Shown here: one piece after another, positions 2,510 through 51,000 of the stretch | Layout: every line of letters starts with the position of its first letter | How positions within the stretch are numbered: the stretch's first letter is position 1 | Assembly: GCF_055900595.2 (NCBI RefSeq) | Contig: NZ_CM148325.1 | Length of the DNA: 64,000 nt | Reading direction: 5' to 3' (one strand) | Program-made: the position numbers and the translations under genes | The notes under the pieces: model-generated | What the model was told of the DNA's origin: nothing | The model's database searches: none | Seen by the model: the letters and a program-made list of their open reading frames with translations, nothing else

Positions 2510-6025
<3,516 letters not shown>

Positions 6026-45218: not shown

Positions 45219-45671
45219 ATGATCTGGATAATGCTCGCTACGCTGGCGGTGGTGTTTGTAATTGGTTTTCGGGTGCTGACATCCGGGGCCAGAAAGGCGA
45301 TTCGCCGTCTCAGCGATCGGCTGAATATTGATGTCGTACCCGTGGAGTCGATGGTTGATCAAATGGGAAAGTCAGCCGGTGAGGAATTTTTACGTTATTT
45401 GCATCGCCCGGATGAGTCGCACCTGCAAAACGCCGCGCAGGTGTTGCTCATCTGGCAAATTGTCATTGTCGATGGAAGCGAACAGAACCTGCTGCAATGG
45501 CATCGGATTTTACAAAAAGCCCGTCTTGCCGCGCCGATTACCGATGCTCAGGTCAGGCTGGCGCTGGGTTTTCTGCGCGAAACCGAACCTGAAATGCAGG
45601 ATATTAATGCTTTTCAGATGCGCTATAACGCATTCTTTCAGCCTGCTGAGGGCGTTCACTGGCTGCATTAA
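45219..45671 (+). CDS. yicN: Conserved protein YicN (DUF1198)
   Basis: 150-aa ORF MIWIMLATLAVVFVIGFRVLTSGARKAIRRL... with single N-terminal TM segment. Confidence 0.88.
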   Translation: MIWIMLATLAVVFVIGFRVLTSGARKAIRRLSDRLNIDVVPVESMVDQMGKSAGEEFLRYLHRPDESHLQNAAQVLLIWQIVIVDGSEQNLLQWHRILQKARLAAPITDAQVRLALGFLRETEPEMQDINAFQMRYNAFFQPAEGVHWLH

Positions 45672-45690
45672 AACCGTTTCGTCTTATTAG

Positions 45691-45762
45691 CCTACAGACC
45701 GCGCCTGAGCTGGTGGGTGGATAAGGCGTGCACGCCGCATCCGGCATCGGAACTGACAGTAG
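45691..45762. repeat. REP element
   Basis: ggataaggcgtgcacgccgcatccggcatcgg matches the E. coli REP consensus core (GCCGGATGCGGCGT...). Confidence 0.65.
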
Positions 45763-45786
45763 GTGAACGCATTATCTACGTTCTAT

Positions 45787-46110
45787 TTACAGCAGCACCT
45801 CCAGCCCGTGTTTTTGCACAATGCTGAGCAGTTTTAATGAAATGCCATTGGGGCGTTTAGCGCCACTTTCCCATTTTTGTACAGTTGAAACGCTGGTATT
45901 GAGATAGTGAGCGAAGACGGGCTGACTCACTTTTAATTTTTCCCGCAGTGCTTTTATCTCAACAGGTTGTAAGTCTTGCACGCTGGTCAGGCAGGCTTTG
46001 TCAAAAGTACGCATCGTTTCGGCAGAAATAGCATCGACGCTGGACAATCCAGCAGCTGCGCTGTGAATAGCCTCAAATGCAGGACTTTTAAATTTAGTTT
46101 TTGCAGTCAT
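45787..46110 (-). CDS. Putative antitoxin, XRE-family HTH protein (107 aa)
   Basis: Minus-strand ORF with C-terminal helix-turn-helix (LREKLKVSQPVFAHYLNTSVSTVQKWESGAKRPNGISLKLL); its start overlaps the upstream ORF by 17 nt. Confidence 0.7.
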   Translation of the reverse strand: MTAKTKFKSPAFEAIHSAAAGLSSVDAISAETMRTFDKACLTSVQDLQPVEIKALREKLKVSQPVFAHYLNTSVSTVQKWESGAKRPNGISLKLLSIVQKHGLEVLL

Positions 46111-46453
46111 AGCAGATCTCTGTCAGTTCTTTAGTGTTAATCATTGCTGTTAGTTGGGCTTTCGTCAGGAAGGCATAATGCTTTGCAAGTTCACGAAACC
46201 CAGCCAGTTCCTGACTATTGATGTTCGACATATCCTGTTTTGCATATAAAAACGTGTAAAACCAATTGCTTCCCCCTTTTGCCAGAATAATTGCACGCTC
46301 ACGATTTTGGTGAAGGCGCTTTTTAAAAACGCCACCACCAAGTGCATCAGCTTTACCTTGCTCCGTTTCTAAAATGGCCCGGCACAACTCTTCATCTGTT
46401 ATTGCATGAGACCTGGCTTCCCTTGCAAACCATTTGGTTTTAAACACGCGCAT
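46094..46453 (-). CDS. Putative type II toxin, RelE/HigB-like (119 aa)
   Basis: Small basic ORF MRVFKTKWFAREARSHAITDEEL... upstream of and overlapping the HTH ORF; toxin-first order as in HigBA-type modules. Family assignment from architecture, not from a search. Confidence 0.6.
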   Translation of the reverse strand: MRVFKTKWFAREARSHAITDEELCRAILETEQGKADALGGGVFKKRLHQNRERAIILAKGGSNWFYTFLYAKQDMSNINSQELAGFRELAKHYAFLTKAQLTAMINTKELTEICYDCKN

Positions 46454-46680
46454 ATCGTTGAGGTCCTGTTATTAAAGTATATCACCAAGTGCAATACTTT
46501 ATCTCTTATTCCCAACCCAATCGCGAAAATGCATATCAGCTTGCCCTATGATTTTTATTTCTTCGAGCAGCCTCGAACTTTTCCCACAACACCGTAAAAG
46601 TTGCAAAAACGTTAAATGTGTCACACATTTCAATGTTAAAGTGGTCAGCTTTTCCTCTGAAACATGCCACGGGTAACACC

Positions 46681-47865
46681 ATGAGTGAATTTATTGCCGA
46701 AAACCGCGGCGCGGATGCCATCATCCGACCGAACTGGTCCGCCGTTTTCTCGGTAGCGTTTTGCGTCGCCTGCCTGATTATCGTTGAGTTTTTGCCCGTC
46801 AGTTTGTTGACGCCAATGGCCCAGGATTTAGGTATTTCGGAAGGGGTTGCCGGGCAATCGGTGACCGTGACCGCCTTTGTGGCAATGTTTGCCAGTTTGT
46901 TTATTACCCAGACAATTCAGGCCACTGACCGCCGCTACGTTGTTATTTTGTTTGCCGTTTTGCTGACGCTCTCCTGCTTGCTGGTTTCCTTTGCCAACTC
47001 ATTCAGTTTGCTTTTAATCGGTCGTGCCTGTCTGGGGTTGGCACTCGGCGGGTTCTGGGCGATGTCGGCGTCGCTGACCATGCGTCTGGTACCAGCGCGT
47101 ACGGTGCCGAAGGCGCTGTCGGTGATTTTCGGCGCGGTTTCTATTGCGCTGGTGATAGCCGCGCCGTTGGGTAGCTTTTTAGGTGAGCTTATCGGTTGGC
47201 GCAATGTCTTTAATGCGGCGGCGGTGATGGGCGTGCTGTGTATTATCTGGATTATCAAATCATTGCCTTCGCTGCCTGGCGAACCCTCGCATCAGAAGCA
47301 AAATACTTTCCGCTTATTACAGCGTCCGGGCGTGATGGCCGGGATGATCGCCATCTTCATGTCTTTCGCCGGGCAGTTTGCTTTCTTCACGTATATTCGT
47401 CCAGTGTATATGAATCTCGCAGGATTCGGCGTGGATGGCTTAACGCTGGTGCTGTTGAGTTTTGGTATCGCCAGCTTTATCGGCACGTCGCTTTCGTCGT
47501 TCATTCTTAAACATTCGGTAAAACTGGCCTTAGCAGGTGCGCCGTTAATACTGGCTCTGAGTGCGTTGGTGCTGACGTTGTGGGGAAGCGATAAAATCGT
47601 GGCGACCGGCGTTGCGATTATCTGGGGGCTGACTTTTGCTTTAATTCCCGTTGGCTGGTCAACGTGGATCACTCGCTCACTGGCCGATCAGGCAGAAAAG
47701 GCTGGGTCTATTCAGGTGGCCGTTATTCAGCTTGCCAATACCTGCGGTGCGGCAATCGGCGGTTATGCGTTGGATAACATTGGTCTGACTTCGCCGCTGA
47801 TGTTGTCCGGCACATTGATGTTGCTTACCGCGCTGTTAGTCACCGCAAAGGTGAAAATGAAGTAA
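46681..47865 (+). CDS. nepI: Purine ribonucleoside efflux pump NepI (MFS)
   Basis: ORF from ATG 46681 [55 protein letters not shown]...; ORF track starts 63 nt upstream. Confidence 0.92.
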
Positions 47866-48066: not shown

Positions 48067-51000
48067 ATGACAGGGAAAGCGCATGGGAACGGTAATCGTT
48101 GGGGCGATAACAGCGTATGTGGATTGGGGGATCGTTTACGTCGTCTGACCGCCGGTCTTTGCCTGATAACGCAAACTATTTTCCCTGTTATAGCTGCTGC
48201 TCCTACGCATGTTAACCCTGCGCATTCGGATACTGCCGCGTCACTGATCCTGTCGAACGTTAAAACTATTCCATACACCTTGGGGGCGTTGGAATCGCCA
48301 CCAACGGTCGCGGCACGCTTTGGTATTACCGTTGATGAATTACGTCGCCTGAATCAGTTCCGTACATTTGCGCGGGGCTTTGACAATGTGCGTCAGGGCG
48401 ATGAGATAGATGTACCACTCATCAACAGTAACAGCCCTGAAGCGCGCACTCTGAAAGCAATGCAGATGGAGCGCGACGGTAAAGATCCACAAATGCAGGT
48501 CGCGGAAGTGGCGCAACAAAGTGGGACACTTTTAGCGCGCGATATGGACAGCGAACAGGCTGCGAGTATGGCGCGTGGCTGGGTGGCTTCTTCTGTGTCT
48601 GCGCAGGCGACAGACTGGCTCAGCCGCTGGGGAACTGCCCGGGTATCTCTGGGTGTTGATGAAGATTTCAGCCTTAAAAGCTCTTCATTTGAATTTCTCC
48701 ATCCCTGGTACGAAACGCCAGATAACCTGGTCTTCAGCCAGCATGCACTCCACCGTACGGATGATCGCACTCAAACGAACCACGGTATCGGCTGGCGTTA
48801 TTTCACATCGAGCTGGATGTCGGGCATAAACCTGTTTATCGATCATGACCTGAGCCGCTATCACACCCGAACCGGGATGGGCGTTGAATACTGGCGCGAT
48901 TACCTGAAACTGAGCGGCAACGGTTATCTGCGCCTCAGTAACTGGCGTAGTGCACCGGAACTCGACAATGACTATGAAGCACGTCCGGCGAACGGGTGGG
49001 ATCTTCGCGCCGAAGGCTGGTTACCGGCCTGGCCGCAGCTGGGCGGCAAGTTGGTCTATGAACAATATTATGGCGATGAAGTGGCGCTGTTTGGTAAAGA
49101 CGAGCGACAAAATGATCCTCACGCGATTACCGCAGGTTTGAGTTACACCCCCGTTCCCCTGATCTCCTTTAGTGCCGAGCAACGGCAGGGCAAACAGGGA
49201 GAAAACGACACCCGAATTGGTATGGAGTTGACGTTGCAACCCGGTCATTCACTGCAAAAACAGCTCGATCCGGCTGAAGTTGCAGCACGACGCAGCCTTG
49301 CGGGCAGTCGCTATGACCTGGTCGATCGTAATAACAATATTGTCCTCGAATATCGCAAGAAAGAGCTGGTGCGGTTGACGCTGACCGATCCGCTGAAAGG
49401 CAAGCCGGGGGAGGTTAAATCGCTGGTTTCTTCCTTACAAACCAAATACGCGCTGAAAGGTTATGACATCGAAGCCGCTTCCTTGCAATCTGCGGGCGGG
49501 AAAGTTGCTGTTTCCGGCAAGGATATTCAGGTCACTATTCCACCCTACCGATTTACGGTAATGCCTGAAACCGACAACACTTACCCAATAACAGTTATAG
49601 CGGAAGATTCGAAAGGGAATTTCTCCCGGCGTGAAGAAAGTATGGTGGTTGTAGAAAAACCCACACTAAGCCTCGCTGATTCAACGCTTTCTGTCGATCT
49701 ACAAATTCTGCTTGCGGATGGAAAATCAATCTCAACGCTGACCTATACCGCGCGAGATTCCAGCGGCAAGCCTATCCCGGGTATGACATTAAAAACCCAT
49801 GCGAAAGGTTTGCAAGATTTCGCCCTAAGCGAATGGAAAGACAACGGTAACGGAACCTATACCCAGTTAGTTACCTCCGGGAAGACGTCAGGCGCGTTGT
49901 CGCTGATGCCACAATTTAACGGCGACGATGTTGCTAAAACACCAGCGCTGATTGCCATTGTGGCTAATATGGCATCCCGAGCGGACTCCATGATTGAAAC
50001 AGACCAGAATAATTACGTCGCGGGTAAGCCGATAGGCGTAAAAGTGACCCTGAAAGATGAGAATGGCAACGGGGTTACCGGAAGAAAAGAACTTCTTAAA
50101 CAGGCTGTTAAAGTAGACAACACGAAGACTGATGCTGTTAGTGCCTGGACGGAAGAAAGTGAGGGAGTTTACAAAGCAAACTATACGGCCCATCTCATTG
50201 GCGACAAATTAACGGCCCAGCTGACGATGCCCGGCTGGCAAACCAAGCATTCGGATGCGTTCAGTATTGCGGGTGATAAAGATACCGCCAAAATCGCTGC
50301 GATGCAGATCACCGCGAATAACGCAGTCGCCAGACGCGATCACAATACCGTCGCTGTGACGGTCAGGGACGTGCATCAAAATTTACTGCAGGGACAAAAT
50401 GTTACCTTCACGGTCGTGAATGGTGCGGCGGTTTTTGCCGATCCAAATGGCGGTATTGTGACGACAGATAAAGACGGGATTGCCAGCGTTAACCTTGCCA
50501 GTGACCAGGCGGTAAACAGTCTTATCAAGGCCGAGATCAATGGCAGTAGTCAGTCTGTGGAAGTGAGCTTTATCACTGGCGATATCTCGCAGCTAACCTC
50601 CACCATCAAGACGGACGATGTGTCATACACCGCGGGTGGCAAGATAAAAGTGACAGTCACCCTTATGGATGAGCAGAAAAACCGGGTGACAGGGATGGCT
50701 TCGCTGCTGGCAGGTAGCGGCGTGGTCGAGGTGAGCGGTACAGATACAAATGAAACGGGTAACTGGAGCGAAGAGTCTGATGGCGTTTACACCACCACCC
50801 GAACCGCGAAGATTGCTGGCAATAGCCATTACGCCACGCTGAAACTATCGACATGGAGTAGCGTGCAGCAATCCGATGCGTATGTCATCCGCGAAAGCGG
50901 AGCTGTGCTGGCTTATTCCTCTATCGTTACCGACAAAACGACCTATACCGCAGGCGGTGCGATTAAAGTTACGGTAACGCTCAAGGATAGCTATGAAAAC

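Follow-up and report, generated by a model that had tools for sequence, protein, structure and literature searches.

A probable PF06296-family type II toxin-antitoxin operon in the chromosomal nepI-yicN interval of Escherichia coli

The closest described systems of the gene pair that is analysed in this work are found in Vibrio cholerae, Coxiella burnetii, and Salmonella Typhimurium. HigB2 of V. cholerae has been reported to be a ribosome-dependent mRNase whose activity requires R51, R64, Y82, and K84 (Hadzi et al., PMC5416850). ToxP of C. burnetii has been reported to be toxic, to block translation in a cell-free system, and to be neutralised by AntitoxP, where the K79E substitution abolished the toxicity (PMC10098735). 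RelE3ST (SL3743) of Salmonella has been listed and tested as part of a toxin-antitoxin (TA) pair. Its expression lowered cultivability, RelB3ST did not neutralise it in the co-expression assay, and the Salmonella antitoxin protein was detected by mass spectrometry (PMC4366850). Gerdes (2025) placed HigB-2 in the PF06296 family and described two-gene relE-yiaG modules, one of them from E. coli (PMC11980606).

In the window, which is the whole stretch of 64,000 nucleotides that was analysed, the pair occupies the interval that is bounded by the end of yicN at 45671 and the start of nepI at 46681. The original prediction had described two minus-strand ORFs of 119 aa and 107 aa in toxin-first order with a 17-nt overlap, and the ORF list gives exactly these lengths, this strand, this overlap, and this order. 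The position between yicN and nepI with a REP element alongside was also confirmed, and the REP element is located on the downstream side of the antitoxin gene. The coordinates of all features are shown in Table 1. Both proteins are basic, with a pI of 9.2 for the toxin, as had been claimed for the 119-aa protein, and 9.6 for the antitoxin. The REP stretch matches the REP-derived naRNA4 model of Rfam at 45715-45780, which is a sub-threshold match of 33.9 bits against the gathering score of 59.5.

The RefSeq coding sequence of the toxin starts at GTG 46447, which is two codons past ATG 46453. The homologues across genera begin with MR[VI]FKT, which agrees with a toxin start at the ATG. The 17-nt overlap suggests a single operon with coupled translation. 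The dN/dS values against the copy in the window are 0.04-0.2 for the toxin and antitoxin genes alike, within Escherichia as well as across genera, and judged by these ratios both genes are under purifying selection. These ratios and the recurrence of the pair in hundreds of genomes argue that the two ORFs are real genes rather than chance ORFs.

Table 1. Coordinates of the toxin-antitoxin pair and the surrounding features in the window.
Feature	Coordinates	Strand	Description	Basis or remark
Toxin gene	46094..46453	minus	119 aa, ATG start	RelE/ParE superfamily, Pfam PF06296 (HigB2/ToxP family)
Antitoxin gene	45787..46110	minus	107 aa, ATG start	Xre-type HTH
Toxin/antitoxin gene overlap	46094..46110	minus	17 nt	Toxin 3' end and antitoxin 5' start
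Extra segment relative to E. coli K-12	45745..46586		842 bp	blastn against the K-12 yicN-nepI interval
REP element downstream of yicN	45690..45744 (about)		Left edge of the variable segment	Common to K-12
Imperfect palindrome	46473..46501		13-nt arms, 3-nt spacer	Inverted-repeat scan; candidate operator for the antitoxin dimer
Palindrome core	46480-46494		Minus-strand letters TTGCACTTGGTGATA	Matches family motif TAGCAC-N3-GTGCTA
Candidate extended -10 TGaTATACT	46476..46484	minus	TG 46484-46483, hexamer TATACT 46481-46476	
Shine-Dalgarno-like AGGA	46464..46467	minus	10 nt upstream of the toxin ATG	Read from sequence

The toxin matches the Pfam family PF06296 ("RelE toxin of RelE/RelB system") with an E-value of 9.8e-42 and 142 bits, where residues 1-113 are aligned to model positions 1-120 of 120. 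The toxin-family homology that had been anticipated for the 119-aa ORF was thus found across its full length by HMM search. PF06296 is also present in 120 of 120 toxin homologues among the matches listed. The scans against NCBIfam and PADLOC-DB gave zero toxin matches. The classical HigB families, which are those of Rts1 HigB (PF05015) and of E. coli K-12 HigB/YgjN and Salmonella SehA (PF09907), were rejected since the toxin matches only PF06296 in the Pfam scan, and the term "HigBA-like" therefore denotes the gene order and not the family membership. Salmonella SehAB was also rejected as the nearest characterised relative since SehA, which shares 40% identity with HigB of E. coli K-12, belongs to a different family.

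The AF2 model of the toxin, whose input was an alignment of 23 homologues, has a pLDDT of 86 and a pTM of 0.80. The model predicts a RelE-type fold where N-terminal helices lie against an antiparallel beta-sheet. The best PDB fold matches that were identified for this model using Foldseek are the structures of V. cholerae HigB2 (5ja9, 8a0x, and 5mje; probability ~1.0, TM 0.5-0.6, ~20% identity), and the next matches are M. tuberculosis HigB1, YoeB, RelK, and YafQ. The model also exhibits an extra C-terminal helix and strand (residues ~98-115), both of which are absent in HigB2. HigB2 itself, represented by a sequence that is 100% identical to PDB 5ja9_C, matches PF06296 with an E-value of 3e-8 over model positions 8-96 of 120 and is, by this sequence match, a short and divergent member of the family of the toxin. 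The PDB sequence searches with the single toxin protein and with a 23-sequence profile gave no matches and did not reach HigB2, so the link to HigB2 is based on the Pfam and fold comparisons. A RelE-type fold alone is no proof of mRNA cleavage because SehA is a RelE-superfamily toxin that is not an RNase (PMC12817084).

The active-site residues of HigB2 have counterparts in the toxin. K44, R46, Y70, and K72 of the toxin are aligned to K49, R51, Y82, and K84 of HigB2, and the stretch YAKQDMSNIN of the toxin is aligned to YGKNEMSDLN of HigB2. The hhalign alignment of the toxin profile with HigB2 is weak (E 0.014) and conflicts with the secondary structure of the model in strand 3. Owing to this disagreement, R53 of the toxin is given as the putative counterpart of HigB2 R64, where both residues open strand 3. 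In the alignment of 32 diverse homologues, K44, R46, R53, and K72 are invariant. Position 70, which is equivalent to HigB2 Y82, is Tyr in the window and Phe in many relatives.

The HTH that had been noted in the 107-aa protein corresponds to Pfam HTH_3 (E 1e-7, residues 52-96), and a second Pfam match is the C-terminal part of MqsA (E 1e-5). Membership of the MqsRA family was rejected since only the C-terminal HTH part of MqsA is matched (model positions 53-123), TIGR03830 reaches 41 bits against a cut-off of 61.8, and the antitoxin has a single Cys and no CxxC. The closest solved relative by sequence is V. cholerae HigA-2 (5jaa, E 8e-10, residues 46-102). The YiaG model NF007481 gives a sub-threshold match (E 9e-7). 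The N-terminal 45 residues are highly conserved in the 32-homologue alignment. A fusion in which a Gly-Ser linker of 30 residues joins the toxin to the antitoxin was modelled with AF2, and the paired input alignment comprised 32 loci. Antitoxin residues ~10-24 and 30-40 are predicted to be helical in this model with pLDDT of ~90-95, as read from pLDDT and secondary structure, and these two N-terminal helices resemble those described for YiaG-type antitoxins.

The toxin and antitoxin genes are consistently found together. When a single genome from each GTDB species was scanned, 492 loci were found to encode a relative. In each of the 82 loci that were examined (2 cut by the contig end), the toxin gene is immediately followed by a gene for an antitoxin homologue. 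Most of the 72 parsed loci exhibit the 17-nt overlap, and the rest exhibit overlaps of 11, 14, 20, 23, or 29 nt. The toxin gene is truncated at four loci, with the antitoxin intact at three of those four; a truncated toxin with an intact antitoxin is the typical decay pattern.

The 15-bp palindrome TAGCAC-N3-GTGCTA is common to the orthologous upstream regions. When up to two mismatches were allowed in the 120 nt that precede the toxin start, the motif was found in 72 of 72 loci (50 of them perfect), and at the same tolerance it had 0 matches in 415 kb of flanking sequence. The core in the window, TTGCACTTGGTGATA, has 2 mismatches against the family consensus, and the 64-kb window contains a single further site at no more than two mismatches, at 30792. 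The Coxiella toxP promoter, which was bound by AntitoxP in EMSA (PMC10098735), contains GTTCACTTAGTGATA. The motif is a sharply defined candidate operator that extends from Enterobacterales to Alpha- and Betaproteobacteria and to the Coxiella plasmid system. The operator of Salmonella, TATCACCTGGTGCTA, includes the Dcm site CCTGG, and an unmethylated CCWGG has been reported upstream of nepI/STM3777 in Salmonella (preprint, bioRxiv 10.64898/2026.01.27.702048), which would fit protein occupancy of the operator in vivo.

The candidate extended -10 overlaps the right half of the palindrome. The strict two-hexamer scan for sigma-70 promoters and the terminator scan found none at the locus, so the extended -10 is proposed by eye. 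The arrangement TG-n-TATA(c/g)T recurs in the orthologous upstream regions, and the Shine-Dalgarno-like element is kept as ACAGGA in the orthologous loci.

The pair probably represents a chromosomal type II TA operon of the PF06296 family (HigBA-2, ToxP/AntitoxP, 'relE-yiaG'), where the free toxin would be a ribosome-dependent mRNase and the antitoxin would neutralise the toxin and autorepress the operon. A toxin-first HigBA/RelE-type module with an Xre-HTH antitoxin had been predicted, and this prediction is supported by the PF06296 match and the predicted RelE/HigB2 fold of the toxin, by HigA2 as the nearest relative of the antitoxin, by the homology to Coxiella ToxP/AntitoxP, by the constant pairing, and by the promoter palindrome. 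The family membership, the predicted fold, the conserved active-site residues, the obligate pairing, the purifying selection, and the conserved promoter palindrome were computed in this work. The ribosome-dependent mRNA cleavage, the neutralisation by the N-terminal segment, and the autorepression are proposed by analogy with the homologues.

One promoter located just upstream of the toxin gene probably gives rise to a transcript of both genes. The free 119-aa RelE-fold toxin would, most likely and as its homologues suggest, enter the ribosomal A site and cleave the translated mRNA, and protein synthesis would halt. The 107-aa antitoxin probably dimerises via its C-terminal Xre HTH. Its conserved N-terminal helices would probably bind and neutralise the toxin, as expected from related antitoxins. 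The antitoxin, alone or with the toxin, would probably occupy the palindrome over the -10 element and repress the operon, by analogy with the described systems.

Several points against this reading were also noted. They are the ~20% identity to HigB2, the Phe in place of Tyr in relatives, the C-terminal extension, and the failure of RelB3ST to neutralise its toxin, as well as the empty strict promoter scan and the two mismatches of the E. coli palindrome core from the consensus.

The taxonomic distribution of the segment was examined in 5426 complete E. coli genomes. The 842-bp segment is present in 1716 of these genomes (32%), where it is always single-copy and chromosomal, and the K-12-type short interval is present in 3668. 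The carriers include O157:H7 and ST131 strains. K-12 has no resident copy of the module and is thus a natural host for toxicity assays. The carrier copies are 95-100% identical, except for HS-02 (78%), which was rejected as a divergent allele since the assembly looks corrupted by homopolymer errors. Comparing K-12 to the window, 43 unrelated-looking bases replace the 842, and the flanks are 94-96% identical, ending at 45744 and resuming at 46587. An IS3-flanked inversion was also set aside because it is a property of the reference strain NZ_CP098223.1 only and not of the window.

The pair is also located between nepI and yicN in Citrobacter koseri, C. amalonaticus, and several Klebsiella including K. 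pneumoniae ATCC 13883. The Salmonella pair adjoins nepI, and sugar-PTS genes occupy the place that yicN has in E. coli. The identity to Citrobacter, Klebsiella, and Salmonella is 80-85% for the antitoxin, 83-88% for NepI and YicN, and 70-72% for the toxin. Other Enterobacterales (Pectobacterium, Erwinia, Serratia, and Yersinia) have the module at other chromosomal sites, and 183 plasmid records, the majority of which come from Rhizobiales, Coxiella, Legionella, and Pseudomonas, also contain relatives. These other chromosomal sites and plasmid relatives indicate that the family as a whole is mobile. At this site, loss in K-12-like strains is likelier than gain because Citrobacter, Klebsiella, and Salmonella have the pair at the same nepI/yicN position. 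The pair thus looks ancestral, i.e. a long-standing occupant of this interval in the Enterobacteriaceae that has been lost from about two-thirds of the sequenced E. coli. The pair had been described earlier as inserted, which is probably the wrong direction since the nepI-side location is common to these three genera.

The 43-bp filler of K-12 exhibits a collinear match of 16 out of 19 to toxin codons (p ~0.02 by shuffling), with IETEQGKD against ILETEQGKAD of the toxin. This match is suggestive of a deletion scar of the toxin gene and goes no further than that. An intermediate-length remnant of the segment was not found. In one soil isolate, the start of nepI is missing owing to another deletion. 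The interval is a clear example of a TA pair that is apparently vertically inherited and repeatedly deleted, not newly inserted.

A recent horizontal insertion at a REP-associated hotspot, where the pair would not be ancestral, is an unlikely explanation for this distribution. Such an event would agree with the carriage by only a third of E. coli, with the REP element that abuts the left boundary, and with the homologues that are plasmid-borne in Rhizobiales, Coxiella, Legionella, and Pseudomonas and located at other chromosomal sites in Pectobacterium, Erwinia, Serratia, and Yersinia. However, Citrobacter and Klebsiella share the nepI-yicN position, Salmonella has the pair next to nepI, and the antitoxin identity to these genera (80-85%) is near that of NepI and YicN (83-88%). 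Direct repeats, integrase, and transposase are all absent at the segment boundaries, and both the 16/19 collinear toxin match in the K-12 filler (p ~0.02) and the separate deletion that reaches into nepI in another strain hint at loss.

With the ancestral TA pair as the preferred reading, two other explanations concern what the toxin does. It is improbable that the pair is a genuine TA system whose toxin acts on a target other than ribosome-bound mRNA, e.g. by protein inhibition as SehA does on RNase III, or that the toxin is attenuated in E. coli. SehA has a RelE/HigB fold without RNase activity and acts via an extra C-terminal helix (PMC12817084), and the toxin also has a C-terminal helix and strand that HigB2 does not have; the HigB2 Y82 equivalent is Phe in many relatives, and the ATG start is lost in O157:H7, where ATA is found instead. 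SehA, with 40% identity to E. coli HigB, falls in another family, however, whereas the toxin matches PF06296 only, and the basic residues K44, R46, R53, and K72 are invariant. Moreover, ToxP, which has the same C-terminal extension, inhibits cell-free translation and loses its toxicity on change of the Lys that is equivalent to K72 (PMC10098735), and the purifying selection on the toxin is strong. A main role in anti-phage abortive infection, by which the pair would count among the defence systems and not among the housekeeping or addiction TA modules, is very unlikely. RelE/ParE-superfamily toxins have been discussed as defence toxins (PMC11980606), the presence of the pair varies among strains (32% of E. 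coli), and the antitoxin has weak PADLOC matches to RmrA (E 6e-6) and HTH_VI (E 9e-5). These antitoxin matches are nevertheless confined to the generic HTH, and the toxin has no PADLOC match. The pair is flanked by core genes at one position in four genera and lies outside mobile elements and defence islands, each E. coli carrier has exactly one copy, on the chromosome, and the sole match in the collection of phages is to a contig of 515 kb from a Salmonella genome. The Abi-type or other small defence pair that had been named as an alternative thus receives no support, with 0 PADLOC families for the toxin and weak HTH-level matches for the antitoxin.

The YiaG-like antitoxin or transcription from the TA promoter could also influence the expression of nepI, which encodes the purine-nucleoside efflux pump NepI, and we regard the chance of this as slim. 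The idea comes from the divergent placement of the pair from nepI, which is kept in Escherichia, Citrobacter, Klebsiella, and Salmonella. If true, this influence would tie toxin activation to nucleoside export, and the module would be more than a selfish TA pair. A side observation that hints at it is the unmethylated CCWGG upstream of nepI/STM3777, as CCTGG is located inside the Salmonella operator TATCACCTGGTGCTA.

The module is already known. It is annotated, it belongs to a described family, and its Salmonella orthologue has been studied, so the novelty of the locus is low. The RefSeq name of the toxin is already "type II toxin-antitoxin system RelE/ParE family toxin". The literature search for the E. 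coli pair by protein accession, yicN, and nepI found no experiment. The pair is one more RelE-superfamily TA module among the variable genes of E. coli lineages including O157:H7 and ST131, with little significance beyond the annotation.

The pair next to nepI in Salmonella appears to be STM3777/STM3778, which is SL3743/SL3744 (relBE3ST) of Salmonella Typhimurium. This identity is based on the listing of STM3777 beside nepI as sharing its upstream region (bioRxiv 10.64898/2026.01.27.702048), on the constant offset between the SL and STM gene numbers, and on the mass of RelB3ST, which was reported as 11,754 Da and is close to the value of 11,765 Da that was calculated for the antitoxin of Salmonella. 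STM3777/STM3778 is the positional orthologue of the pair in the window, with proteins of 119 and 107 aa, a 17-nt overlap, and the location beside nepI. The toxins are 70% identical and the antitoxins are 80% identical.

The relE-yiaG modules (PMC11980606) also consist of a PF06296 toxin gene that is followed by a gene for a YiaG-like antitoxin, which has an Xre HTH and two helices at the N-terminus. However, the toxins of the relE-yiaG subfamily have extended disordered N-termini (PMC11980606), whereas the toxin in the window starts with MRVFKT and has no extension.

The V. cholerae HigB2/HigA2 pair (VCA0468/0469; PDB 5ja8, 5jaa, and 8a0x) has the toxin family PF06296 and the gene order in common with the pair in the window (PMC5416850). 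The toxin model resembles HigB2 more closely than any other solved structure, and HigA2 is the best PDB sequence match to the antitoxin HTH. HigA2 combines a neutralising segment at the N-terminus with an HTH at the C-terminus, and the basic active-site residues of HigB2 are conserved in the toxin. Comparing the two toxins, HigB2 has 110 aa, is ~20% identical, and is without the C-terminal helix and strand. HigB2/HigA2 is located in a superintegron, whereas the pair in the window is located between core genes.

The ToxP/AntitoxP pair of the C. burnetii plasmid QpH1 (CBUA0028/CBUA0027) likewise has overlapping genes in toxin-first order. ToxP is 31% identical to the toxin (E 1e-18) from end to end, so that the C-terminal helix and strand are also covered, with K79 of ToxP aligned to K72, and AntitoxP is 55% identical to the antitoxin (E 7e-37) over the full length including the N-terminal segment. 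The palindrome upstream of toxP, GTTCAC-TTA-GTGATA, is similar to the candidate operator in the window. The two toxins nevertheless exhibit considerable divergence, and ToxP/AntitoxP is plasmid-borne and plasmid-stabilising, whereas the pair in the window is present as a single chromosomal copy with core genes on both sides.

The interval between yicN and nepI exhibits a third state in the soil isolate E. coli SC434. The 3' flank of yicN is joined directly to an N-terminally truncated nepI by deletion in that isolate (about 3001-3036 of L090, a comparison stretch numbered in its own coordinates, as are the other L-numbered stretches). The yicN-nepI interval is therefore prone to deletion. The contig NZ_JFHN01000045.1 of Erwinia mallotivora carries two copies of the toxin-antitoxin pair that are about 13 kb apart (L029 and L039), which shows that the module is able to duplicate or to be gained more than once per genome.

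The only copy of the pair with 78% identity was identified in E. coli HS-02 (NZ_CP172818.1; L002, 3001-3831). Across both genes, this copy consists of T, G, and C runs, and the annotation marks its toxin gene as frameshifted. The copy looks like a local failure of assembly or base calling rather than a divergent allele.

The ATG start codon of the toxin gene (window 46451-46453) is replaced by ATA in E. coli O157:H7 strain PA20 (L091, about 3252-3254). The toxin CDS of PA20 in RefSeq encodes 117 aa and starts from a GTG that is located two codons downstream of the ATA. The spacing between this GTG and the AGGA ribosome-binding site is poor, so the toxin may be translated less in this lineage.

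Only one further site in the 64 kb has two or fewer mismatches to the operator consensus TAGCAC-N3-GTGCTA, which is TAACACAGTGTGCTC at 30792-30806. This operator-like site is probably a chance match.

The closest complete genome is NZ_CP098223.1 (L093 and L001), whose identity to the window is 99.98-100% up to and including nepI. Past nepI (from about 48042 of the window onward), NZ_CP098223.1 has a pair of identical, oppositely oriented IS3 copies, and the yicS-nlpA-yicL-setC block is inverted between them. The gene iatC is truncated in that genome, and a CbtA-family toxin gene is located 208 bp from one of the IS3 copies. The window has neither these IS3 copies nor the yicS-nlpA-yicL-setC inversion. 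The large ORF that follows nepI in the window and its internal repeats are listed in the table.

Features of the window beyond nepI
Feature	Coordinates	Strand	Description
3225-aa ORF	48067-57744	+	Directly downstream of nepI
Tandem array inside the 3225-aa ORF	51571-55578		291-bp repeat, 13.8 copies

The stretch of NZ_CP098223.1 that is 100% identical carries the annotation of inverse autotransporter adhesin IatC. In K-12, the position of the 3225-aa ORF is occupied by yicS.
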